A stretch of DNA of 20,322 bases. Source: Promethearchaeia archaeon. Lineage in GTDB: Archaea; Asgardarchaeota; Lokiarchaeia; Sigyniarchaeales; SOKP01. Under the pieces are notes generated by a model that searched no databases, was not told the origin of the DNA, and saw only the letters and a program-made list of their open reading frames with translations. The translations under genes were made by a program, and so were the position numbers. The DNA lies in assembly GCA_029856155.1 (NCBI GenBank), contig JAHQWL010000079.1, positions 1 through 20,322 of the forward strand, given 5' to 3'. Shown here piece after piece: positions 4,209 through 20,322 of the stretch; position 1 is the stretch's first letter; every line of letters begins with the position of its first letter.

Positions 4209-5453
4209 ATGGGTTCTTCTATGCTTGCTCATAGCCTCTTAGAATTATCGAAGGTTGAATTATTAGATAGAGCGAGTCAATTTATTTTTTCGACTGGTTT
4301 AAATGATGGAACCTCAAAGTTATGCAAAGCAAACATGAAATATGGCTTAGCACAGTTCCATTTGATCCAAGAGAAATATGGCTTTGAGCCAAAAGCAACT
4401 TTTATTTCTTCTCCAGATGAAACGATCTCGCGTAATAAATTTAGGTGGAATTCTGGATTAGGGTACGGAGGAAGATTAAACTGGGGTAATGGAAAGGAAA
4501 AATTGATTTTTTTGAATTCCAAACCAAATTGCTGTGGTATCTTAGTAGGCGGCTTGGAAGAATTGCCTGACCCATATAATTTAATTACGAAAATTGATAG
4601 AATAAAATCAGAACCGTTGTATTATGATGATATTTCAATAGATTGGGATTACGGAATATCTAATCATTTTATTAACTGTTTTGAAACAAAGAAATTATCA
4701 GATATAGATCTTCCCCCCTATCTATTTTTAATTCATGGTTCAGCTCCAGAATTTAGAGATGATTGCCATGGAATTGGACTTTATATAGATAAATCAAAAA
4801 TATTGAAAGATATTGCTATTGAAGAAAAAACTAAATTTGGGACACAATATATTTTATTGGATTCAGATGCTGCTGAATATCTTCAATTCAGTAAAAAAGC
4901 TTTAGAATTCTCTAGTTTAAAAAGAGAGATAATAGCTAATAATCTTTTTGATTATGGTTATAAAATTATTTGTAACCAACCGCATCAATTTTTAAAAGAT
5001 TATAATAATATGTACTTAGGAAGTAATTGTACAGATGTTAGTTGTGAATTAATAAATTCAGATAAATTTCCAACAACCCTTAGGGCAGATATCGCAGCGT
5101 ATTTATTTAAAGGAAAAAAAAATCTTTCAGAAACAACACTTAAAAATCAAAATCTCTTAGAAAGAGCAGTCGATTTAGAACTTTTAGATTTATTAACAAA
5201 TGCTAATATTCTCCCACATGGAGGGGGATATTCCTTTAATGATGTTGAAGATGTTTTAGATATATTAGAATATAAAGACCAACGATATTTTGTCACATCT
5301 TTAAAAACAAATACTAGTAGATTAAAAATAATTAGAAATGTTAGCGAGTTACAATTTGAATATAGAGGTCGAGATGTTGTACTTAAAACTATTCAATTAG
5401 ATCTTGGAGAAATTATTGCTCGTTTAAATCCTTTGTTTTCCTTAAAATTATAA
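4209..5453 (+). CDS. Divergent RtcB-superfamily protein (RNA 3'-phosphate ligase fold)
   Basis: RtcB motifs in the correct order: SPD70...GLGYGG, NCC109G, SN152H153F, IH176GS, H259Q, PH337GGG, E380xxxxY385, and C-terminal IIARLNPLFSLK413L. Confidence 0.75.
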   Translation: MGSSMLAHSLLELSKVELLDRASQFIFSTGLNDGTSKLCKANMKYGLAQFHLIQEKYGFEPKATFISSPDETISRNKFRWNSGLGYGGRLNWGNGKEKLIFLNSKPNCCGILVGGLEELPDPYNLITKIDRIKSEPLYYDDISIDWDYGISNHFINCFETKKLSDIDLPPYLFLIHGSAPEFRDDCHGIGLYIDKSKILKDIAIEEKTKFGTQYILLDSDAAEYLQFSKKALEFSSLKREIIANNLFDYGYKIICNQPHQFLKDYNNMYLGSNCTDVSCELINSDKFPTTLRADIAAYLFKGKKNLSETTLKNQNLLERAVDLELLDLLTNANILPHGGGYSFNDVEDVLDILEYKDQRYFVTSLKTNTSRLKIIRNVSELQFEYRGRDVVLKTIQLDLGEIIARLNPLFSLKL

Positions 5454-7655: not shown

Positions 7656-9194
7656 TTACTCCACTCTTACTATTTCTTTAAATAACCTTTCTATAAATCC
7701 ATCAAAATTATCTGAAGTGAATTCAACATTCAATAGGTGAAGCATAAGTCGAGGAATATAGTCTTCATTTTCATAGATAGGAATAATTTTCATTAAGTCT
7801 TTTTTTCTTAATTGAAATGCAACTTGCCATTCATCTTTTACTGCTTTTGATTTCATTGAATTTTCAGAACAAAAAAGGATGAATATATTACATTTTTTAA
7901 GCGTTTCTTCCATATATTCTACAATATTTGCACTACTATCTGCTTCCCAAAATAAAACTTCTTCAATTTCAGTATAACTTTTTAATTTTTCGACCATTTT
8001 TGAAATTTGGAAGTGTTCTGAGTCCAATGTAGAGTAACTCATAAATATTTTTTTTGGAGCGCCTATTAATGTAGGTATCGGTGCACTTTCTGGAACAACT
8101 TTAGGTTTCCCCAGATATTTCCTTTTAATTAGAATTATACTCCCTATAACTAATACTGAAATTATTAAGGTTGCTATAATAAGATAAACAATATCAATAG
8201 GAAGCATTCTTCCACTCCCACCTGTAGATCCATTACCATCAGATCCACCATTTAAATCTTCGACCATTATTGTATATTGTGCAAAATCTATACTATGTTG
8301 GTTTGGTTCTATTAGAAGAACATAATTACCAGTGATAGATGGACTAAAACTAATATTTTTTGGATAGCTAAGTCCAGTATTGTTTTTGATATTGGTCACT
8401 GTTAAAGGTTCAAATTCAACTAATCTCATATTCAAGATCCCAGATCCAGAGTTTCTATTTAGTATAATATTATAACTTGCTCCAGCTTCCATATAAATAA
8501 AGTAAGCATCTAAATAATCATTTCCAGAAATATCTCCTGTAATCGATGTAATGTCAGTTAAGTTTGTAATTTCCTCATACATAAGGTCGACAATCCACTC
8601 ATATCTATTCTCAATAAAAACTCCAGTTTCATCATAAAAATAGGAATAACCCAAACTAGGCTCATTACCACTAATAAGCACACAATCTGAACGAGGAAGA
8701 TCACTTGAAAACATGATAGCGGGGGTATCATCAATAGCATAGACAGGTCCATGATAATAATTTGTATGCCATGAAGGGCTCGACGTGTAAGGAAGATTGT
8801 ATATAGTACTGTCAACCCACCATTGTGCTGTTTCATTATTAAAATCATCACTAAAAAAAGATATTACCAAATTATACGGTCCGGTTCCATCGCATCTATA
8901 TTTAAACTGGACACCTTTAACAATGACAAACCTTCCAAATGGGATAGGAAATTCAACTATTAAATATTGAAAATCTGAACTAGAATCATAATGAACATAA
9001 GCGTTATCATCTGAAATTTCATCATCATAATTATGTATCCATAGTGTTGGGCTTGATAACCTAAGATTTTTATGAACTGAATCTTGAGAATTGATTAAGG
9101 CATAATTTTCAAAACTGTTCAGCATATATAAATTTAAAAAAATAATTGAAAACCCAATTATGAAAATTTGAATACGTAATGAAATTTTCTTCAT
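7656..9194 (-). CDS. Single-pass membrane receptor-like protein: signal/N-terminal anchor, shared head + PPC-like domain, TM, cytoplasmic TIR domain (catalytic Glu intact)
   Basis: N-terminal basic+hydrophobic segment, PPC-like DYLDAYFI...GNYVLLIEP, Gly/Ser linker, TM IVYLIIATLIISVLVIGSIILI then KRK, TIR KIFMSYS...FILFCSENSMKSKAVKDEW...KIIPI (E455, nt 7830-7832). Confidence 0.85.
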   Translation of the reverse strand: MKKISLRIQIFIIGFSIIFLNLYMLNSFENYALINSQDSVHKNLRLSSPTLWIHNYDDEISDDNAYVHYDSSSDFQYLIVEFPIPFGRFVIVKGVQFKYRCDGTGPYNLVISFFSDDFNNETAQWWVDSTIYNLPYTSSPSWHTNYYHGPVYAIDDTPAIMFSSDLPRSDCVLISGNEPSLGYSYFYDETGVFIENRYEWIVDLMYEEITNLTDITSITGDISGNDYLDAYFIYMEAGASYNIILNRNSGSGILNMRLVEFEPLTVTNIKNNTGLSYPKNISFSPSITGNYVLLIEPNQHSIDFAQYTIMVEDLNGGSDGNGSTGGSGRMLPIDIVYLIIATLIISVLVIGSIILIKRKYLGKPKVVPESAPIPTLIGAPKKIFMSYSTLDSEHFQISKMVEKLKSYTEIEEVLFWEADSSANIVEYMEETLKKCNIFILFCSENSMKSKAVKDEWQVAFQLRKKDLMKIIPIYENEDYIPRLMLHLLNVEFTSDNFDGFIERLFKEIVRVE

Positions 9195-9226
9195 TTTTAC
9201 TTAATTGATACTATTATTTTAGATTT

Positions 9227-11626
9227 TTAACGTCTTAAAATTTCTTTATAAAGATTTTGAATGAAGCCTTCAAAATCATCATTGGTATATTTAACATTTA
9301 ACATCGGCATCAACATATAGGGAATAAATTTTTCTTCTTCATGCACAGGAATAATTTTCATGACTTCCTTTTTCTGTAACTGAAATGCAGCTTGCCATTG
9401 ATCCTTCACGTCCCTAGATTTTTCAGAATTTTCAGAGCAAAATATTATAAATACATTTGAATTTTGTAGTGCTTCTTCCATCAATTCTACTACATTTTGA
9501 TAACTTTTCTCTTCCCAATAAAAAACTTTATCTATTTCTGGATATTCTTCTAAAGCTTTTGCTATTTTTGCTAAATTAAAATTTTCAGAATCATCAACTG
9601 AAAAACATAAAAATATTTTTAATTTTCGTTCTATATGTGGTTCAAGTACTGCTTCCTGTGTTTGTATACTTTGTTCAGTTTCTATAACTAATTCAATATG
9701 TTCTGATTTTTCTCCAGTTCCCATTTTTATCTTTCCTAATCTAATAGCTATCATTATTAAAACAGCCAAAGCAAGTAATGATATTAAAATTATAATAAAT
9801 AACCTAACATACTCATAAGGTGTATTATCTCCACTCGGAGGAGAAATAAAAACGTTACTTTCTATAACGTTTCCCACACAATTTATCTCTTTAATGTTTT
9901 CCTCATTATTTAAGAATTCATTAAACTTTACAATATTATAATCAGATTCATAAAAATAAATTCCAAATTGATTATGTTTTATTGAATTTTCAATTATAAT
10001 GTTGTGAGAGCTTAATAATAGGTAAATTCCCGCGTGAAAATTTCCATTTATAGAATCATAATTTAATTTTATAGTGATATTATGACTATTAATCAATTTA
10101 ATCCCATTCCATCCGTTATCATAGATAAAACTGCCTATAATTGTAATATTATGACAATCTATCAAAATAATACCGTTGCCATTATAAACGTACGTGTTAT
10201 TAGAAAGAACACCATTAGATACATTAAACAATTTAATACCAGCACTATCAGAATTATATAATGATTCTTGAAACTCACAATAAATCATTTGAAAGTATTT
10301 TATAGAATTTCTAATTTCAATACAACTGCTAAGATTATTTCCATCTATCCACAAATTTTGAAGGATGTAAGGATCACTATCAGTCCCAGATCCAGAACAC
10401 CAATTTTTATCCGCCATTTCTGCCCATGTATAATCCGCATTTCCTAAATCATCAATTATAAAGGGTGATTGCGGAAGAGGTTGACTCTCTACGTAAATAT
10501 AATTAGTTTTATATTCATAGTCTGTTTCGTTGTTTTTATCTTTAATCCATAAGCTTACTGAAAAGTATCCTGTTGAATTATATTGATGAATAGGGTTTTC
10601 TAAAGTGGAGTTTGTTGAACCATCTCCAAAATTCCATTGGTAAGTAGTCGGTGTAGTTCCATCATTACCTGTAAATTCAAATTGAATCCAATCTCCCATA
10701 ACAATATAAGTTTCATTTGCTGTAAAATCTGCTAAAGGCATACTTTCATCATAATATCTGATAGAATAATCTGCTATATCGGTTGCAGGATTATTTGGTT
10801 CCACTAATAATATATAGGTTGCAGAACTTAAAGGTGTGTAGCTCATATATTCTGGATCAGATGTTCCGCTTGATAGAGCTAGCACATCGTTAGTAAGATC
10901 TTGATAAGTTACTAAACGCATATCAAGGTTACCTGACCCAGAAGTACGTTCAAGTTTGAATTCATAAGTGATACCTGCCGATAGAGTTACAAAATAAGCA
11001 TCTACAAAATCAGTGTCTGTTATACTTCCTTCATATTTTTGTTTAATGTTCATTGTTATAATCCATTCATAAATGAGTTCGACAATATATTCATAATTAG
11101 GATCAACTGTCCACCCACTACCAACATCATACCAGCTGTTACCGATACTCGGGGTATCACCACAGAGTGCAATACAATCATCTGAGGGATCCATTCCTAT
11201 AAAACGTACCCATGGATTATCATCAATAAGATAAGTAGGTCCTAAGCAACGAAAAGTCCTCCAAGTAGGAGTAAGCCCCACATCAGGAATTCCTAAATCT
11301 AAATATCCAACCCAAAAACTATCACCTTCAAAACGTATCTCCACATCGTAAGGTCCTGTTCCAGGTCCATAGTTAACATACCTATATCTTACTCCTGTAC
11401 TAATAAGGGAGCCTTCAAATAAATTATAATAGATTGCTAAGTTTTCCATATCTCCGTATGTGTCATCGTTTACAACATAAGCCGCTTCATGAGTAGTATC
11501 ATCAAAATTACCCGCATGTCTGGCGGGAGTTGCAGTTCCATTAATGATATAATTTGGTAAAATAATTATAATCAAAGTAAAGGTTAAGATTGAAACTTTT
11601 AATAACTTTAAGTCTAGAGTTTTCAT
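9227..11626 (-). CDS. Single-pass membrane receptor-like protein: signal peptide, shared head + PPC-like domain, PKD, NosD/CASH beta-helix, TM, TIR domain with Glu->Gln
   Basis: PKD WNFGDG...NPIHQY, GSGTDSDPYIL lead-in with GIxL-x2-S-x-N beta-helix repeats, TM LFIIILISLLALAVLIMIAI, TIR KIFLCFS...FCSENSEKSRDVKDQW (Q743, nt 9398-9400). Confidence 0.85.
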   Translation of the reverse strand: MKTLDLKLLKVSILTFTLIIIILPNYIINGTATPARHAGNFDDTTHEAAYVVNDDTYGDMENLAIYYNLFEGSLISTGVRYRYVNYGPGTGPYDVEIRFEGDSFWVGYLDLGIPDVGLTPTWRTFRCLGPTYLIDDNPWVRFIGMDPSDDCIALCGDTPSIGNSWYDVGSGWTVDPNYEYIVELIYEWIITMNIKQKYEGSITDTDFVDAYFVTLSAGITYEFKLERTSGSGNLDMRLVTYQDLTNDVLALSSGTSDPEYMSYTPLSSATYILLVEPNNPATDIADYSIRYYDESMPLADFTANETYIVMGDWIQFEFTGNDGTTPTTYQWNFGDGSTNSTLENPIHQYNSTGYFSVSLWIKDKNNETDYEYKTNYIYVESQPLPQSPFIIDDLGNADYTWAEMADKNWCSGSGTDSDPYILQNLWIDGNNLSSCIEIRNSIKYFQMIYCEFQESLYNSDSAGIKLFNVSNGVLSNNTYVYNGNGIILIDCHNITIIGSFIYDNGWNGIKLINSHNITIKLNYDSINGNFHAGIYLLLSSHNIIIENSIKHNQFGIYFYESDYNIVKFNEFLNNEENIKEINCVGNVIESNVFISPPSGDNTPYEYVRLFIIILISLLALAVLIMIAIRLGKIKMGTGEKSEHIELVIETEQSIQTQEAVLEPHIERKLKIFLCFSVDDSENFNLAKIAKALEEYPEIDKVFYWEEKSYQNVVELMEEALQNSNVFIIFCSENSEKSRDVKDQWQAAFQLQKKEVMKIIPVHEEEKFIPYMLMPMLNVKYTNDDFEGFIQNLYKEILRR

Positions 11627-11680: not shown

Positions 11681-14600
11681 CTACTTTCTGAATTTTTTTC
11701 TAATAAGAATTAAAGTTAATAGAGAAATTAAACCGATTATTAATAAATTGTACCCTGGAATTGCTCCAGAACCTGTTGTAGGACTGTATGCAAGCTCCTT
11801 AATTACAATTAATTCCACATATCCTTGGTTTCCAGAAGTATCTAGTACATAAAATTCAATGGTCGATTGTCCCTCAGGCAATGCATCCCATAGAGTCTCA
11901 TCAATTACACCTATCAGATCTGTAATCACATACGTAGTGATACCCCCATCTAAAGTATACCAGATGCTTTGTAATCCATATTCTTCTATACTAATATCAT
12001 CAATAGATATATAATAAGCGGGGGAAAACTTTCCGAAAGATTGATTGTATTCGGGAGCTAAAATCGTAATAGTGGGTGCAATTGTATCTCTGACATGGAT
12101 AATAAAAGAACCATTTTCAAAATTGTTATATATATCATATACTCGAACCTCTAATGAATAAGTACCTAATGATAAAGGATTGAAATTTACAATCACTCCA
12201 TCATCATTAATAATGAAATGAGTTGTATCATTTATCCACCAATGATCAAATGCCGAAAGATCTGAAGCATTTAAATCTAATCTAAATAAGTTTCCGTATT
12301 CAAGAATTTGATTTGTAATAATTTCAGGGTCAAAAGTGGGGGCTGTTGTATCTTGGACTGTAATAGTTATAATAGTATTGCAATATGTATTATATAGGTT
12401 ATAAGCTCTTACTTGTAGCCAATATATTCCAATAGATAAGGGTAAAGCATTAATAATTGTCCCATTTCCGGATATTTGAAAGTTTAAGGTATCATTTATC
12501 CACCATTGATAAATACCCCAAATACTCGAAGCATTTAGATCATATATTAAATTGTTACCATACTCTACGACTTGATCGATTGGAATTTGATCCCAAATTG
12601 GGGGTGAAGTGTCCTGTACTGTAATCTTTATGATAGCACTACAATTCAAACCGTACGGATCATATGCTATAATTTCCAGCCAATATTGTCCTATAAATAA
12701 GGTGGTAATATTAGTAATAATACCATTTCCATCAATATTAAAATTAGAGGTATCATTAATCCACCATTGATAAATCCCAGAGAGATCAGTAGCGTTTAGA
12801 TCATAATTGAATTTGTCGCCAAACTTTATAGATTGGTCTATGGGATTTTGATCCCAACTTGGAGGTGTTGTATCCCGTACTGTAATCTTAATGATAGCAC
12901 TACAATTCAAACCATAAGGATCATATGCTATAATTTCCAGCCAATATTGTCCTATAAATAAGGTGGTAATATTAGTAATAATACCATTTCCATCAATATT
13001 AAAATTAGAGGTATCGTTAATCCACCATTGATCAATTCCTGAAAAATCTGAAGCATTTAAATTAAAAATAAAGTAGGAGCCTAATTCAATAGTTTTATCA
13101 GAAGGTATCTGTATCCAAATTGGGGGTGTTGTATCCTGTACTGTAATCTTTATGAAAGCACTACAATTCAAACCATAAGGATCATATGCTATAATTTCCA
13201 ACCAATATTGTCCTACTAATAATGAAGTAATATTAGTTATAACACCATCTCCATCTATATTAAAATTAGAGGTATCGTTAATCCACCATTGATCAATTCC
13301 AGAGAGATCTGAAGCATTTAAATTATAAATAAAGTAGGAGCCTAATTCAATAGTTTTATCAGAAGGTATCTGAATCCAAATTGGGGATGTTGTATCCTGT
13401 ACTGTAATCTTTATGAAAGCACTACAATTCAAACCATAAGGATCATATACTATAATTTCCAGCCAATATTGTCCTATAAATAAGGTGGTAATATTAGTAA
13501 TAATACCATTTCCATCAATATTAAAATTAGAGGTATCGTTAATCCACCATTGATCAATTCCAGAGAAATCAGTAGCGTTTAAATCATAATAAACTCCGGA
13601 TCCCAACTCTAAGGCTTGATCAGTAGGAATTTGATCCCAAGTCGGTGGTGTAGTGTCTTGTACTGTAATTTTCAAAAAAGAAGATAGAACATTATCATAC
13701 GAATCATTTACTTGAATTTTTAACTGATATATTCCCATGGAAAGAAATGAATTGTTGCTAATGACACCATTCGAATCAATTTGAAAGTCAATTGTATCAT
13801 TAATCCACCAATGATCTATTCCAGAAGGATCAGTGGCATTTAAGTCATAATAAAGGGGATTCCCAAATTCTATAAATTGATTAGAAGGTATTTGAATCCA
13901 AGTAGGAGGCGTTGTATCTAATACACCTTCACTCATAAAAAATATAAAATGGGTAACTTGTTTTCCTTCCGAATCAGAGCCATCCCAAATAATCTCATCA
14001 TAACCATCTCCATTTATATCCCTTACTCTTAACCTCAAGTCATAATAGTGATTGTAATATATTTTATCTAATTTAATTTCAATTGGATCACCAAAAGAAG
14101 TCCCAAGCCAAGAGTAAATTCGAATAACATCGGTCCAATATTGATTACTCCCCGAATCAGGACAAAAAAAGCTTACATATCTTCCATATAAATCATTAGA
14201 AAATAGTTTTCCCACTCCATACATAGAATTTTGGTTTGATACTTGTTTGACTAATTGTTGATAAGAAAAACTACTAGTAGAAGAATCATAAATAATAATG
14301 TACCGATAATTATCAATCCATGTACTTGCCATCCCAACAACTAAATCTTCATTACCATCTCCGTTAAGATCTTCATGATCATCGAATTGGTCTAGAAATG
14401 TTGGATCCCGGTTGAGCCAATATTCCTTTAATAAAGAATAAGAATGAGAAGAATCATCATAGATCCTAATTCCACCATCGAACCCACTGTTATATCCCCA
14501 ACTATAAACAATCTCATCGAAATTATCTCCATCTATATCAATCATCGTAGCATCAGCTATCCCATCCCAACCTTGTGTGGAAGGATCATCAAAAGATTTT

Positions 14601-16426
14601 AATTCTTCAAATCCAGTACCATTATATGAAATTACACGTCTTCTTCCCTCATGACCACCATATGCAATTCCATTATCTGCATAAACAAATTCTTCTTTAC
14701 CGTCATTGTCTAGATCGCCAAAACAAATTTTGCCACGGTCGTCGTAACCGGTATCCCAAATGTTTTCAAGACTTAGAATTTTTGATTCCCAATCATAATA
14801 ATAAAAATAATAATCATAACTAGTAGCAGGCATTCCAACTAATTCATTTATTCCATCTCCATCATAATCTCCAAATTCATAAACTGAAATAGGAATATTA
14901 TCATAAAATTCGCAATCATTTCCAGTAAATGTGTATATAGAGGTTTCATAATTAGGCATATGCCTAATTAGTTCTAATTTACCATCATTATTAAGATCAA
15001 TAAAATTAAAATTTTTTCTTTCACTCGCATCATTTTCCCATGTTACATTAAAATCAATCGCATAATCACTAAATGGATCAGAATAAAAACTTATACTTGT
15101 TGAATTCATAGTGATAATATCGTGTGCTGGAGCTGATGGATTACCATAATAAGCGCTTACTGATATTACTTCAAAATTTAAAACTTGTGTCGGTTTTGAA
15201 TAATCACCTAGTCCATAGACTCCTAATGAATCGTTATCAAGTATAACTAAATGAAAAATTTCAGGATCGTAAAAGGGATTTCCTAGAAATTCTGGTTTTC
15301 TCGTCCATTTAATACCAGAAAGACTCCCTATTAATGTTCCACTATTAAGATAATACGTACGTAGAACTCCTTCATCATCATGGGCGGCATATCCATTTCC
15401 TTGATCATCAATATAATATATGGGATCTCCAGATCTCGTATACCCAGAAACCCAAATGTTGCTACCATCACTTCCACTCAACAACTGGAAATCATCATTT
15501 CCATCTCCATTTTGTGGAGTCACTAAAATATCAAAAAAACCATCACTATCTTGATCTGGACAAACAGCTTCACCCCAAGAATCAAAACCAATATCTCCTG
15601 AAGTCCAAACTAATGAACCATTTGCACCACTCCAACAATGAATTCTATCAACATAATTTGCACCTGTGATGATATCCCATATATTATCTCCATCTATATC
15701 TGGGATTGGGTTAAGATGGGGGTTTGTACTATATGGATCTGATTGTGAATAATAATTTGACCAAATCATTGTCTTGTCGCTGGAGTTTAATATGCCATAG
15801 GATTTGTCGTTTCTACTCATAATAATTTCGGGCTTACCATCTCCCGTAAAATCCTCAATTAATGCTTGTGGAATATTTGTCGATCCGAAAGGCTCTCCAA
15901 CATATAAAATTTTACCTGTTTTACCGTCTAAAATCCCCATACTATTATTTTGGAAACATCCAATGACGTCCATTACACCATCGAAATTCTCATCATAAAA
16001 GGCTGGAAAATACCAACCCATCTCTCCACGAGACCTTAATATTTTGCCATCATATGTTGTTAGATAAGCATAGAAATAATCTTTAGACCAAAGAATATTC
16101 CCGTCATGATCAAAAACAGTGGTATTCCAATTCGAACTTATACTGGTTGTAACAATAATATCATCAAAGCCATTATCATTCAGATCAGGGTATATTATGA
16201 AATTACCCCAATCTAATGTTGTTCCAAAATTTTTTGTCCATTTTTCTACATATTGCAAAGATGATCCATTTGAGGGATTTAAATCTGAATTTGAATGGAA
16301 CTTATCCATATTTTTATTTAAATTAAAATCTATAAGTGAATAAATTTGAAAAATGAGGATAAAAGATAAGAAGAGAAAAACTAAATTTGATTTATGGGAT
16401 CTAAAATATCTATATTTTCCAGTCAT
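11681..16426 (-). CDS. Large surface adhesin-like protein: two FG-GAP/VCBS-type beta-propellers, 7 Ig-like repeats, terminal Ig-like domain, Loki-CTERM-like anchor
   Basis: About 11 DxD/NxDGxxD/E-hh Ca-binding loops (e.g. DFTGDGKPEII, GDYDGDGINELV, GDLDNDGKEEFV, RDINGDGYDEII), DTTPPxW repeats, and C-terminal IPGYNLLIIGLISLLTLILIRKKFRK. Confidence 0.85.
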   Translation of the reverse strand: MTGKYRYFRSHKSNLVFLFLSFILIFQIYSLIDFNLNKNMDKFHSNSDLNPSNGSSLQYVEKWTKNFGTTLDWGNFIIYPDLNDNGFDDIIVTTSISSNWNTTVFDHDGNILWSKDYFYAYLTTYDGKILRSRGEMGWYFPAFYDENFDGVMDVIGCFQNNSMGILDGKTGKILYVGEPFGSTNIPQALIEDFTGDGKPEIIMSRNDKSYGILNSSDKTMIWSNYYSQSDPYSTNPHLNPIPDIDGDNIWDIITGANYVDRIHCWSGANGSLVWTSGDIGFDSWGEAVCPDQDSDGFFDILVTPQNGDGNDDFQLLSGSDGSNIWVSGYTRSGDPIYYIDDQGNGYAAHDDEGVLRTYYLNSGTLIGSLSGIKWTRKPEFLGNPFYDPEIFHLVILDNDSLGVYGLGDYSKPTQVLNFEVISVSAYYGNPSAPAHDIITMNSTSISFYSDPFSDYAIDFNVTWENDASERKNFNFIDLNNDGKLELIRHMPNYETSIYTFTGNDCEFYDNIPISVYEFGDYDGDGINELVGMPATSYDYYFYYYDWESKILSLENIWDTGYDDRGKICFGDLDNDGKEEFVYADNGIAYGGHEGRRRVISYNGTGFEELKSFDDPSTQGWDGIADATMIDIDGDNFDEIVYSWGYNSGFDGGIRIYDDSSHSYSLLKEYWLNRDPTFLDQFDDHEDLNGDGNEDLVVGMASTWIDNYRYIIIYDSSTSSFSYQQLVKQVSNQNSMYGVGKLFSNDLYGRYVSFFCPDSGSNQYWTDVIRIYSWLGTSFGDPIEIKLDKIYYNHYYDLRLRVRDINGDGYDEIIWDGSDSEGKQVTHFIFFMSEGVLDTTPPTWIQIPSNQFIEFGNPLYYDLNATDPSGIDHWWINDTIDFQIDSNGVISNNSFLSMGIYQLKIQVNDSYDNVLSSFLKITVQDTTPPTWDQIPTDQALELGSGVYYDLNATDFSGIDQWWINDTSNFNIDGNGIITNITTLFIGQYWLEIIVYDPYGLNCSAFIKITVQDTTSPIWIQIPSDKTIELGSYFIYNLNASDLSGIDQWWINDTSNFNIDGDGVITNITSLLVGQYWLEIIAYDPYGLNCSAFIKITVQDTTPPIWIQIPSDKTIELGSYFIFNLNASDFSGIDQWWINDTSNFNIDGNGIITNITTLFIGQYWLEIIAYDPYGLNCSAIIKITVRDTTPPSWDQNPIDQSIKFGDKFNYDLNATDLSGIYQWWINDTSNFNIDGNGIITNITTLFIGQYWLEIIAYDPYGLNCSAIIKITVQDTSPPIWDQIPIDQVVEYGNNLIYDLNASSIWGIYQWWINDTLNFQISGNGTIINALPLSIGIYWLQVRAYNLYNTYCNTIITITVQDTTAPTFDPEIITNQILEYGNLFRLDLNASDLSAFDHWWINDTTHFIINDDGVIVNFNPLSLGTYSLEVRVYDIYNNFENGSFIIHVRDTIAPTITILAPEYNQSFGKFSPAYYISIDDISIEEYGLQSIWYTLDGGITTYVITDLIGVIDETLWDALPEGQSTIEFYVLDTSGNQGYVELIVIKELAYSPTTGSGAIPGYNLLIIGLISLLTLILIRKKFRK
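12089..13918 (-). repeat. Intragenic tandem repeat, 7 units of 261 nt (87 aa; last unit 264 nt)
   Basis: Asp codon of the DT(T/S) unit start recurs at 13918, 13657, 13396, 13135, 12874, 12613 and 12352. The central four units are near-identical at DNA level. Confidence 0.92.
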
Positions 16427-16504: not shown

Positions 16505-19108
16505 CTAACTAATTTTTTTTCTAAAAAACAAATTTTTACATTTTAATATTTTCAAAATAAGGATAATGCTGATAAGAGATATTGTTCCTATAATAAGATT
16601 TAAATCATATCCTGGAATTCCAGGGGGTGATGACGCAGGCATATCATCTGAGGAAAGATCTTTTACTATTATAACATCTTTATAACAAGACCTCTCCTCA
16701 ATATCTTGAGCATAAAAGCTTATTGTTATATGCCCTTCTGGTAAAGCATCCCAGACAGTCTGATCAATAAGATCTGTCAATATAGTGATATAATAAACAG
16801 TAGTTCCACCATTTAATGTATACCAGATCAAATCAATATCATCACCAATAATAGAGATACTATATGCAGGAGCATATCGTCCATATACAGCATTCATCTC
16901 CGGATTATTTATATCTATTGATAATTGAATAACTTCGACAAGAATATAATTTATTAATGTAAGATTGTCAGAATCTCCATTAAAATCTATAATAATTAGG
17001 GAGACTGAATATGTACCTGGAATACTATAAATATGGATAGGATTTTTTTCAGTAGAAATTAGACTTCCATCCCCAAAGTCCCATTCGAATGTAGCGGGAG
17101 TATTACCTTCGCTTCCTATGAATGTGAATTGGACACTTTCATCAACATCTATAATTGTTTCATCAGCAATGAAATTAGCAATAGGACTAATATCTGCTAT
17201 TACAGAAATCAAATTTATTTTCATTTCAATATCTATATCACCATCAATATCTGTTAACGTTAAAGTAACGGTAAAATTATCAACAGTATTGTAATAATGG
17301 TGAGGATTCTGTTCATTAGAAGTAGGACTTCCATCACCAAAATCCCAAAGAAAGATTGTAGGGAGATTGCCAATATTCCCGATAAATATGAAATTAACCC
17401 ATCCCTCTCCTATCAACAAGCTTGTATTTACATTAAAATCAGCATTTGGTAATAAATCGATATCCACGACAACATAATCCATGTGCGCATCAAAATCACC
17501 ATTATTATCTGTTACATTTAATATTATCCAGAATAAACCCGATGAATTGTATTGATGTATAGGATTTTTTTCTGTAGAAATTGGACTACCATCTCCAAAG
17601 TTCCATTGAAATGTAGCGGGAGCAGTTCCTTCAGTTCCAGTAAAATTAAATTGTACCCATTGACCCTCTATAATTTCTGTTCGATTAGCAGTAAAATTAG
17701 CTATTGGTAATTCATTGAGATTTACTGTTATATAATCAATTTTCTCAATAAAATCAGAATCACCATTTCGATCAGTGACAAGTAGACTAACATTATAAAT
17801 ACCAACATCTGAATATTGGTGTGATGGATTTTGTTCACTCGAAGTAGGAGTACCATCTCCAAAATCCCACAAATATATAGCAGGAGCATTTCCTTCACTT
17901 CCTGTGAAGTTGAACTGGACAATTTCGCTCTGGGAAATATTAATTTCATTAGCTGAAAAATCTGCAATAGGTACTAAATCAGCTTCGACTGTAATATAAT
18001 TTGTTTTCACTTCATTATCAATATCACCATCATTATCAGTAACAGTAAGATCAACTGTGTAATTTCCAGCTGAAGTATATTGGTGAATAGGATTTTTATC
18101 TGTAGATGTAGGAGTACTATCCCCAAAATCCCATAAATAAGTTGTTGGAGTATTACTCTCAGAACCATTAAAAGTGAATTGGACCGACTCACCTTCTAGT
18201 ATTATGGTTGCATTTGAAGTAAAATCTGCAATAGGTGTTGGTTCAATATAATAACGAATTGAATAGTCTGCTGTGTCGTTATTGGGTATATTAGGTTCAA
18301 TAAGTAATACATAAGTATCAGTACTGGAGGGTGTATATGTCATATACTCCGGATCCGAAGATCCGCTTGATTGAGCTAGTACATTATTAGTTAGATCTTG
18401 ATTTACAACTAACCTCATATTAAGATTCCCTAAACCTGAAGTGCGATCAAGCTCGAATTCATACTCTACTCCACTAGTTAATGTTACAAAATAAGCATCT
18501 ACATAATCGGATGTTGTTATACTTCCTGTCGTTGTGGTATCAATATTTAAATTTACCACCCATTCATATAGAAGATCTACTAAATATTCATAAAAATTGT
18601 CTAAAATCCAACTTCCACCGATGTTATAATAACTATGACCATTACTGGGTTCTGTCGCACATATAGAGGGGCAATTACTTGATGTATCTATTCCAATACA
18701 ATAAACTACGGGATCATCATCTAAAAGATAAGTTGGACCCATACATCTAAATGTTCTCCAAGTATCGCTGATAACATGATCAATATTTAAATCTTGATAT
18801 CCTACCCAGAATGATTCTCCTTCAAATATGATTTCCATATTTGTAGGATTGCTTCCGACATTATTATGCATATATCTAATTCCTGTACAAATAACTGTTC
18901 CTTCACCCATATTATAAGTAATGGCTAAATATTCCATAGCTGAAGGATTATCATAAAATACCATCCATCGAGCATTTACATATTCATCATCATAATTCCA
19001 TCCTCGTCTACCAGTTGTTGCAATTCCTGTTTTTAACAAATTTGAGAATAAAAGACAAGAAATAGTAAAAATTAAAAAAATTGACAAATTTTGTTTTTTT
19101 ATTCTAAT
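16505..19108 (-). CDS. Surface protein: signal peptide, shared head + PPC-like domain, 5 PKD domains, Ig-like domain, Loki-CTERM-like anchor (no TIR)
   Basis: Head aligns with those of 9227-11626 and 7656-9194. Five W(D/N)FGD PKD units; C-terminal IPGYDLNLIIGTISLISIILILKILK. ORF-track start is TTG 19087; an in-frame ATT at 19108 behind GGTGA is proposed here. Confidence 0.85.
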   Translation of the reverse strand: MRIKKQNLSIFLIFTISCLLFSNLLKTGIATTGRRGWNYDDEYVNARWMVFYDNPSAMEYLAITYNMGEGTVICTGIRYMHNNVGSNPTNMEIIFEGESFWVGYQDLNIDHVISDTWRTFRCMGPTYLLDDDPVVYCIGIDTSSNCPSICATEPSNGHSYYNIGGSWILDNFYEYLVDLLYEWVVNLNIDTTTTGSITTSDYVDAYFVTLTSGVEYEFELDRTSGLGNLNMRLVVNQDLTNNVLAQSSGSSDPEYMTYTPSSTDTYVLLIEPNIPNNDTADYSIRYYIEPTPIADFTSNATIILEGESVQFTFNGSESNTPTTYLWDFGDSTPTSTDKNPIHQYTSAGNYTVDLTVTDNDGDIDNEVKTNYITVEADLVPIADFSANEINISQSEIVQFNFTGSEGNAPAIYLWDFGDGTPTSSEQNPSHQYSDVGIYNVSLLVTDRNGDSDFIEKIDYITVNLNELPIANFTANRTEIIEGQWVQFNFTGTEGTAPATFQWNFGDGSPISTEKNPIHQYNSSGLFWIILNVTDNNGDFDAHMDYVVVDIDLLPNADFNVNTSLLIGEGWVNFIFIGNIGNLPTIFLWDFGDGSPTSNEQNPHHYYNTVDNFTVTLTLTDIDGDIDIEMKINLISVIADISPIANFIADETIIDVDESVQFTFIGSEGNTPATFEWDFGDGSLISTEKNPIHIYSIPGTYSVSLIIIDFNGDSDNLTLINYILVEVIQLSIDINNPEMNAVYGRYAPAYSISIIGDDIDLIWYTLNGGTTVYYITILTDLIDQTVWDALPEGHITISFYAQDIEERSCYKDVIIVKDLSSDDMPASSPPGIPGYDLNLIIGTISLISIILILKILKCKNLFFRKKIS
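16935..18240 (-). repeat. Five tandem PKD domains (~86-88 aa each)
   Basis: P(I/N)A(D/N)F...W(D/N)FGD(G/S)...NP(I/S/H)HxY...D(x)xGD repeated five times; diverged at DNA level. Confidence 0.9.
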
Positions 19109-19381: not shown

Positions 19382-20322
19382 CTAATTATTAATAATTTTT
19401 GCCCCACAAAATCTACATGCCTTAATTTCTTTATTCATTTTTTGAAGACAAGGTTCATGATAATACGCATTACAATTTTCACATTGATAAACTTTAAAAT
19501 CTCCTAAAAAAATGCTATGGCAATAGGAACATGATGCGTTAATTTGATCGATTTTTTCTTCAGGTATTAAGCTCATTTTTGTATTGGATAATTCATCCTC
19601 ATCTACAATTATTATACCTTGAGATAATTCTTCTTTATCTTTGACTAATTTTAAAGCGGCTGCTGGAATCGATAGAAGAAAGAAGCAGAAAGGGCATCTG
19701 AACACATTTTCGCTGTATTCTGTTTTTTTAGCCCACATAGCTGCACAAGATAAATGCATTACGCGATCACAATTGGGGCAAAAACGGCCCTCACTGAAGA
19801 AATCAGCACCTGTAACTGCCGCTTTAACAGAATGGCAGATTTGGCACTTTTTTTGTCCTCGATCCCTCCCTCCTATCATTAACCTAATATCTAATAAAGA
19901 TGGTCTTCTTAATGGTAAGGCAATCTCACTGACAAGAGGGGCAATAGTATCTTTTTTATCTGGGGAAAAATAATCTATGCCTTCTTTCACATCTTTCTTT
20001 GAAGCGAACGCTTTACCTGCAGAAATTATTGATTTAGTATCATTAAAATATCCATATTCTCCTCCAGTTTTTTGGGTTATTCTCTTTAAAGAATTTTCTC
20101 CATATTCTTGTTTACCTCCTAATTGGCAAGCATCAATAAACACACTCAAACCCTTAGCAATTTCAATCATTTTTACTAATTTGTTAGTATCAGTGTTTAA
20201 TTTGTTATCAGTAATTATAAAAATACGCGGTATTTTTCCCCCAATTTTACGCATTTCCTCAACAAGAATTTGTAAAGCGAATGCAATCCCTTCATGTAAA
20301 TATCCCCGTCCCGAAATTTGAA
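19382..20322 (-). CDS. vWA-domain protein with two C4HC3 (RING-variant/PHD-like) zinc fingers; TFIIH p34/p44-like; 5' truncated by window
   Basis: Frame stays open upstream of the ATG at 20254 to the window edge (QISGRGYLHEGIAFALQILVEE-M). vWA elements RIFIITD, VFIDACQLG, LKRITQKTGGEY. Fingers CQIC..CPNC-x4-H-x2-C..CPFC and CSYC..CENC-x4-H-x2-C..CRFC. Confidence 0.75.
   Translation of the reverse strand, partial: QISGRGYLHEGIAFALQILVEEMRKIGGKIPRIFIITDNKLNTDTNKLVKMIEIAKGLSVFIDACQLGGKQEYGENSLKRITQKTGGEYGYFNDTKSIISAGKAFASKKDVKEGIDYFSPDKKDTIAPLVSEIALPLRRPSLLDIRLMIGGRDRGQKKCQICHSVKAAVTGADFFSEGRFCPNCDRVMHLSCAAMWAKKTEYSENVFRCPFCFFLLSIPAAALKLVKDKEELSQGIIIVDEDELSNTKMSLIPEEKIDQINASCSYCHSIFLGDFKVYQCENCNAYYHEPCLQKMNKEIKACRFCGAKIINN

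Follow-up and report, generated by a model that had tools for sequence, protein, structure and literature searches.

Pairs of an enzymatic and a pseudo-enzymatic TIR domain have been described for plant intracellular receptors of the NLR type, and the literature on heteromeric TIR NADases begins only in 2026 (PMC13732033). In Arabidopsis RRS1/RPS4 and other paired TIR-NLRs (PMC13732033, PMC13725568) the two genes are linked, one TIR carries the catalytic Glu, and the dead member has lost the Glu together with BB-loop residues and is the more variable of the two. A 20,322-nt stretch of DNA from a Promethearchaeia archaeon (contig JAHQWL010000079.1 of assembly GCA_029856155.1, hereafter the window) contains two adjacent genes, P0001 and P0002, that share these features and would resemble a paired TIR receptor in their working, yet belong to neither the TIR-NLR nor the Toll-like receptor (TLR) families. 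Unlike the plant pairs they are archaeal, are predicted single-pass membrane receptors with extracellular sensors, show no Pfam match to NB-ARC or leucine-rich repeat (LRR) domains, and lie in tandem in the same direction rather than divergently; and whereas the DE surface varies in the plant sensors, the dead TIR of P0002 keeps its EE/DE face.

Animal Toll-like and interleukin-1 (IL-1) receptors, with their co-receptors and decoys, have the same order of signal, ectodomain, one transmembrane (TM) helix and TIR, and the gene cluster in the window also holds a TIR-less paralogue. The likeness is one of topology and fold and implies no specific kinship. The ectodomains are of jelly-roll, PPC, PKD and beta-helix type and not LRR or Ig, and the TIRs of TLRs are scaffolds throughout, whereas the Asgard family keeps the enzyme-type Glu in 221 of 223 other members. 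Nor was any TIR-only adaptor of this clade found in the host genome, unlike the adaptor-based signalling of the animal receptors. A preliminary description of the window, made from the sequence alone, had drawn its parallel with the animal TLRs; RRS1/RPS4, one enzyme with one dead partner, is closer.

The prokaryotic TIR NADases (TIR-SAVED, SPARTA TIR-APAZ, Cat1, AbTir and Thoeris ThsB) share with the pair the TIR_2 fold, the alpha-C Glu and the composite site, but they are soluble homo-oligomers triggered by nucleotides, nucleic acids or phage proteins. The composite site forms where one subunit, with its Glu, BB loop, beta-A and alpha-B/C, comes up against the EE/DE face of its neighbour (10.1101/2022.05.07.491051; PMC8635717; 10.1101/2023.09.23.559129). 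Exchange of the Glu for Gln abolishes the activity of ThsB (10.1101/2021.01.06.425286) and of TIR-SAVED, where inactive E84Q subunits rescue and increase the catalysis of a partner whose own site is intact (10.1101/2022.05.04.490601), and in AbTir even Glu to Asp lowers activity (10.1101/2022.05.07.491051). The engineered E84Q/E85Q forms of these enzymes are the laboratory counterpart of the natural change in P0002. In the literature, our coverage of which is incomplete, neither membrane TIR receptors of Asgard archaea nor a naturally dead prokaryotic TIR partner was found described.

Both genes are on the minus strand, and the 32-nt spacer between them indicates that they are probably co-transcribed. 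By hydropathy each protein has one N-terminal hydrophobic segment and one TM helix with the TIR on the cytoplasmic side, so the two should constitute a linked pair of single-pass surface receptors. Positions below are those of the whole window, and residue numbers are those of P0001 or P0002 as named.

7656..9194, minus strand: P0001 gene, 512 aa, with signal or N-terminal hydrophobic segment, two-domain beta head, one TM helix and Glu-type TIR
7665..8051, minus strand: P0001 TIR, aa 382-510, from BLASTP, fold and clade conservation
7830..7832, minus strand: GAA, Glu455 of P0001 at the catalytic position, from codon reading and profile alignment
8127..8183, minus strand: P0001 TM helix, aa 338-356, from hydropathy
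8256..9056, minus strand: P0001 extracellular head, aa 47-313, predicted jelly-roll/lectin-like and PPC/collagen-binding-like domains
9195..9226, minus strand: spacer of 32 nt between P0002 and P0001, of equal length in contig L103 and three more contigs
9227..11626, minus strand: P0002 gene, 799 aa, with signal, beta head, PKD domain, beta-helix stalk, one TM helix and predicted pseudo-TIR
9233..9619, minus strand: P0002 predicted pseudo-TIR, aa 670-798, from BLASTP, TIR_2 match and clade conservation
9233..9385, minus strand: EE/DE-side half of the pseudo-TIR, aa 748-798, with 0 of 14 conserved positions altered and a dN/dS of 0.16
9398..9400, minus strand: CAA, Gln743 of P0002 at the catalytic position, likewise CAA in L031, L103 and L108
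9506..9508, minus strand: Lys707 of P0002, in place of a BB-loop Asp conserved to 86% (D419 in P0001)
9599..9613, minus strand: P0002 beta-A motif FLCFS, aa 672-676, with Phe675 for the Tyr found in 220 of 223 relatives and a private Cys674
9743..9799, minus strand: P0002 TM helix, aa 610-628, from hydropathy
9845..10741, minus strand: P0002 stalk, PKD aa 296-370 and beta-helix aa 444-594, from domain search
10748..11533, minus strand: P0002 head, aa 32-293

The preliminary description had placed the TIR pair at 7656-9620, which takes in only the TIR of the 799-aa gene. The C-terminal domains of both proteins exceed the TIR_2 cut-off, and BLASTP aligns the two TIRs without gaps with 69 identities in 129 residues (53%), exactly the count estimated earlier by hand. 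The model of the P0001 TIR (predicted local distance difference test, pLDDT, 87.8) matches the RPS4 TIR with a Z of 15.6 and a root-mean-square deviation of 2.3 Å over 129 aligned residues, the SPARTA TIR with a Z of 15.5, and those of RUN1 and Cat1 likewise with a Z of about 15; the TIR of Hydra TRR-2 is also among its best fold matches. E455 lies within a predicted helix and in the family profile alignment shares its column with the alpha-C Glu of both RPS4 and Cat1. Among 225 full-length TIRs of the clade, 221 have Glu at the catalytic position, two Gln and two Val (128, two and one after clustering at 80%), and against such conservation the change in P0002 is far from a chance one. Since the Glu is invariant, P0001 is probably an enzyme that cleaves NAD+ once its TIRs meet head to tail.

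Opposite the GAA codon of E455, P0002 has the CAA of Q743, and FMSYS of beta-A corresponds to FLCFS, as first described. The Glu is missing from the alpha-C position of P0002, with Gln there in the window, L108, L103 and L031. That P0002 is still enzymatic through another residue or reaction is very improbable. The Tyr to Phe change in beta-A, which belongs to one of the two changed pocket motifs listed earlier, need not by itself abolish activity, as the enzymatic RPS4 has Phe there in the profile alignment and plant TIRs can be active with a beta-A Phe. The Asp just before the Gln had been named as a possible alternative catalyst, but it is conserved in 142 of 223 relatives against 221 of 223 for the Glu, is Gly in 49, and was rejected; the effects of Glu to Gln and Glu to Asp in the characterised enzymes, and the drift of neighbouring pocket residues between the two Gln-type orthologues, also speak against residual catalysis.

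A full-length orthologue of P0002 (P0003/P0097), 60% identical, was found in a Logan assembly and an NCBI genome. It has CAA at the catalytic codon and the same Tyr to Phe change, and Ser at the position of Cys674. Of the residues whose conservation in orthologues had earlier been put up for checking, the Gln and the Phe are therefore shared and the Cys is private, so that Cys674 was dropped as a meaningful change; a sequencing error or private mutation behind CAA is ruled out by this diverged orthologue from other datasets. Contig L108 is 100% identical to the window over 3325 nt, possibly comes from the same sample, and is hence a weak confirmation of CAA. In L103 the Gln-type orthologue is followed after 32 nt by the P0001 orthologue and this by metG, which is also the order in the window, and three further contigs hold a gene end 32 nt upstream of the P0001 orthologue. 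A linked pair of one TIR with and one without the Glu is present in the window and L103 and not in L104. No more Gln-type orthologues were found in 53 other genomes of the genus, in 134 of the family, or in metagenome scans, where 22 pattern matches proved not to be TIRs, and the scan of genome contigs gave one Glu-type locus only; on these searches the dead state appears to be lineage-restricted.

Between the window and L103 the Gln-type TIR has a rate of nonsynonymous substitution (dN) of 0.15 and of synonymous substitution (dS) of 0.60, that is a dN/dS of 0.25 (bootstrap confidence interval 0.14-0.47), which differs from neutrality (Fisher p 6e-7); the Glu-type partner has a dN/dS of 0.16. 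The Gln-type TIR is under purifying selection and is not a pseudogene. The earlier suggestion of a retained scaffold or inhibitor stands in so far as the TIR is kept under such selection beside a Glu-type partner, but inhibitor is only one option, and it is not implied by Glu to Gln because an engineered TIR with this change can complete and boost the NADase of its partner (10.1101/2022.05.04.490601).

P0002 might instead be kept for its ectodomain, as an adhesin or glycan binder, with the TIR, after a single loss of catalysis, conserved only as a stable folded tail that is slowly relaxing. This would explain why dN in its pocket half is about twice that of the partner (0.17 against 0.077) and why the two Gln-type TIRs differ from each other elsewhere in the pocket (W>C, V>F, S>R), so that decay is still going on; the same head also occurs without a TIR in the window and in genomes G083 and G086, and the family turns over fast and has broken copies (a frameshift on C82, a stop codon in L138/L139). 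We nevertheless regard it as unlikely: between the orthologues the TIR is the best-kept part of P0002 (70% identity against 55-66% in the ectodomain parts), there is no stop or truncation across a dS of about 0.6 though a tail is easily lost, and the polar EE-half positions Q461, K464, K469, N489, E507 and R510 (P0001 numbering) are all kept.

The decay is one-sided. A position was taken as conserved if 85% or more of the remaining clade TIRs have the same residue, which gives 27 positions on the pocket side, from beta-A to alpha-C, and 14 on the EE/DE side. P0001 has 0 altered on the pocket side and 1 on the EE side, P0002 has 8 and 0, and P0003 has 10 and 0, so the preliminary description, which had seen two motifs changed and the rest conserved, understated the change. 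Counting sites altered in either Gln-type TIR the asymmetry has a Fisher p of 0.003, and as many pocket changes with zero EE changes are found in 0 of 223 other TIRs. Altered in both (P0001 numbering) are Y387F, T389V/F, I397L, D419K/E, I424V and E455Q, and Y427L falls on a residue that is aromatic in all other clade TIRs. An exact match of D419 to the BB-loop Asp of the plant TIRs was considered and rejected, since the alignment leaves room for E417, a retained residue, to be the counterpart instead. The dN/dS is 0.34 in the pocket half and 0.16 in the EE half, against 0.19 and 0.12 in the partner, with overlapping intervals. This suggests that the P0002 TIR has lost its catalytic half and kept the half that would complete a neighbour's site, and the Gln, the pocket decay and the purifying selection together indicate a pseudo-enzyme retained by selection.

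Because P0002 has lost the Glu and the pocket half of the composite site and kept the EE/DE half, it may be an asymmetric co-receptor, a pseudo-enzyme whose EE face is lent to the site of P0001, a reading we favour tentatively. An outside ligand would cluster the two proteins, and the P0002 TIR would bring its EE face up to the P0001 BB loop, completing one active site per heteromer, while itself neither catalysing nor, probably, extending the strand. NAD+ turnover would then be gated by the longer and more variable ectodomain of P0002, and runaway assembly would be capped. We infer the hetero-assembly, the ligand, the product and the sign of regulation alike. A prediction of a complex of two plus two TIRs with NAD gave a median of 0.29 with the mark at 0.32 and is used neither for nor against binding. 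A candidate reader of the product could be an 867-aa RelA_SpoT-TPR-SLOG(LSDAT) protein encoded elsewhere in the host genome (L153:821-3421, G000:C92), unlinked to the receptor pair; the window holds no Thoeris-type effector gene (SLOG, Macro or SIR2), and the match to ThsB is only weak.

The dead TIR could also work as a brake or decoy in the manner of RRS1, the main alternative: it would poison or cap TIR strands and so keep P0001 off until a ligand rearranges the complex, or would simply compete for ligand and partner. In the Arabidopsis pairs the linked sensor, without Glu or BB-loop Asp, represses the executor (PMC13732033; PMC13725568), and P0002 lacks both the Glu and a conserved Asp of the BB loop, has a TIR-less paralogue with the same head in the cluster, and has a head that diverges faster than its partner's (55% against 82% identity), as in a sensor. 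The faster head, however, also has the higher dS (1.14 against 0.44), which points to recombination and not selection, and the plant sensors have a highly variable DE surface (PMC13725568) whereas the EE/DE half is the best-kept part of P0002; we consider a brake somewhat unlikely. Taking the co-receptor and the brake jointly, it is fairly probable that the dead TIR regulates its neighbour.

Several observations weigh against the co-receptor reading. A more distant orthologous pair in L104/L105, whose upstream gene is 49% identical to P0002 and encodes the same domain order, carries the Glu and canonical motifs in each TIR, and in L106/L107 the P0001 orthologue lies behind a different gene and not a P0002-type partner; a dead partner is thus not required, and the gene pair would be older than the dead state unless the TIR module was exchanged. 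The Gln arose once and is seen in two distinct sequences, and the statistics rest on rows that are not independent. Several conserved residues of the EE half are core hydrophobics whose retention may reflect folding alone. Tandem arrays are frequent among the family genes, so adjacency alone proves no interaction, and the family is without the Trp of the WxxxE motif, its NADase activity being predicted from sequence.

The trees join the L104 upstream TIR to the P0001 clade (98/93); the Gln-type TIRs (99/99) stand apart. Holding the Gln-type TIRs and the L104 upstream TIR together gave a p-AU (approximately unbiased test) of 0.10 and was not rejected; the test used 38 rows with 13 pocket columns masked, and the 124-row tree was a quick search only. 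The two TIRs of the L104 pair (L104:3-3863) are 70% identical to each other, which suggests that the TIR module was exchanged or converted. That the Gln-type TIR is not sister to the P0001 TIR, to which it is 53% identical against 54-57% to others, would fit a TLR-style scaffold recruiting another cytoplasmic protein or serving other TIR receptors than its neighbour, and there are three more clade TIR genes (one frameshifted) and distant TIRs in the genome for it to serve. Given the linkage to the P0001 orthologue retained in L103, and with no TIR-only adaptor of the clade found in the genome, such a role seems quite improbable.

A second dead lineage has Val in place of the Glu. P0158 and P0164 are predicted multi-TM receptors with 10 pocket-side and 1-2 EE-side changes, and they have also lost D419 and I424. 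A spacer of 43 nt separates the gene of P0164 from a Glu-type TIR gene upstream of it; on L137 (365-1321), L138 and L139 a pseudo-TIR of this type on a multi-TM receptor stands in tandem behind a Glu-type paralogue, and in L138/L139 the upstream Glu-type gene has a premature stop near its end. Both dead lineages thus adjoin a Glu-type paralogue (2/2), which is suggestive and not significant with a background adjacency of 9/43 for clade genes. A wider form of the co-receptor reading, a surface heteromer whose naturally dead TIR contributes one half of the partner's NADase site and gives a receptor/co-receptor logic gate, with at least two origins (E>Q, E>V) in a Toll-like family found across the Asgard archaea and independent of the plant paired NLRs, is possible but doubtful.

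Named homologues of the receptors are from Promethearchaeota, i.e. Loki-type Asgard archaea. The TIR query matches 34 of 61 related genomes with up to 19 matches per genome, distant TIRs included, and the clade TIR is an expanded group joined to many different ectodomains. A search of the Atlas gave generic TIR_2 clusters only. The host genome has three further TIR genes of the clade, one of them frameshifted, besides the more distant TIRs; a large clade receptor (G000:C82:62346-67651) has its frameshift within the TIR, which may be real or an assembly error. The WxxxE Trp, four residues before the Glu, is replaced by Ala or Ser in 123 of 131 clade clusters, unlike in the cyclising TIRs, and P0001 likewise lacks an aromatic residue there. 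This aromatic is needed for cyclic ADP-ribose (ADPR), and its loss points to linear ADPR and not to inactivity (10.1101/2022.05.07.491051), so by analogy the clade more probably makes linear ADPR than one of its cyclic isomers. The Trp directly after the catalytic Glu is nearly invariant in the clade, and the product may be unusual. Soluble two-TIR proteins of the clade (P0031, P0032, P0033, P0098 and P0099), at least three with a PCI/winged-helix match, are possible adaptors in other genomes and were not found in that of the host. The host genome also carries tandem soluble LRR-TIR genes (L154:1593-6373, G000:C52), one with the alpha-C Glu and the other, from the translation only, apparently without; judged from motifs this could be a second active/dead pair.

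New here are the orthologue evidence, the selection test, the asymmetry of the faces and the second, independent dead lineage. If the two proteins work together, dead co-receptors control Toll-like surface receptors in the prokaryotes most closely related to eukaryotes. The pair is also a natural snapshot of a TIR passing from enzyme to scaffold. The lineage is narrow, giving it value as a model case and not as a widespread system, and two domains of about 130 residues with 53% identity are directly testable in vitro.

The head of about 260 aa is common to P0001 and P0002 (34-36% identical); its model in P0001 is of moderate confidence (pLDDT 69), with fold matches at a Z of 11.5-12.2. The P0002 head is 57% identical to the head of the TIR-less 860-aa protein and 55% to that of its own orthologue. 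The identity of the P0002 head is patchy and its dS raised, making recombination between heads likely (window 16505-19087 and 10748-11533). Upstream of P0002 follow two more genes.

11681..16426, minus strand: FG-GAP surface protein, 1581 aa, upstream of P0002
16505..19087, minus strand: TIR-less paralogue, 860 aa, with P0002-type head, five PKD domains and C-terminal anchor

A shorter relative of the FG-GAP protein is located upstream of the pair in L103. In the window the gene contains near-identical repeats of about 261 nt (12100-13700; 87-aa Ig-like units), a block missing from the L103 relative. A scan for σ70 promoters gave nothing beyond chance in the window, and the σ70 model is ill-suited to archaea. 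At 4209-5453 a 414-aa open reading frame convergent with metG has no Pfam match; its His/Asp/Cys motifs may be like those of RtcB-like ligases. At the other end (19382-20320) a gene cut by the contig end encodes a possible vWA-like N-terminal part followed by zinc fingers of PHD/RING/C1 type.

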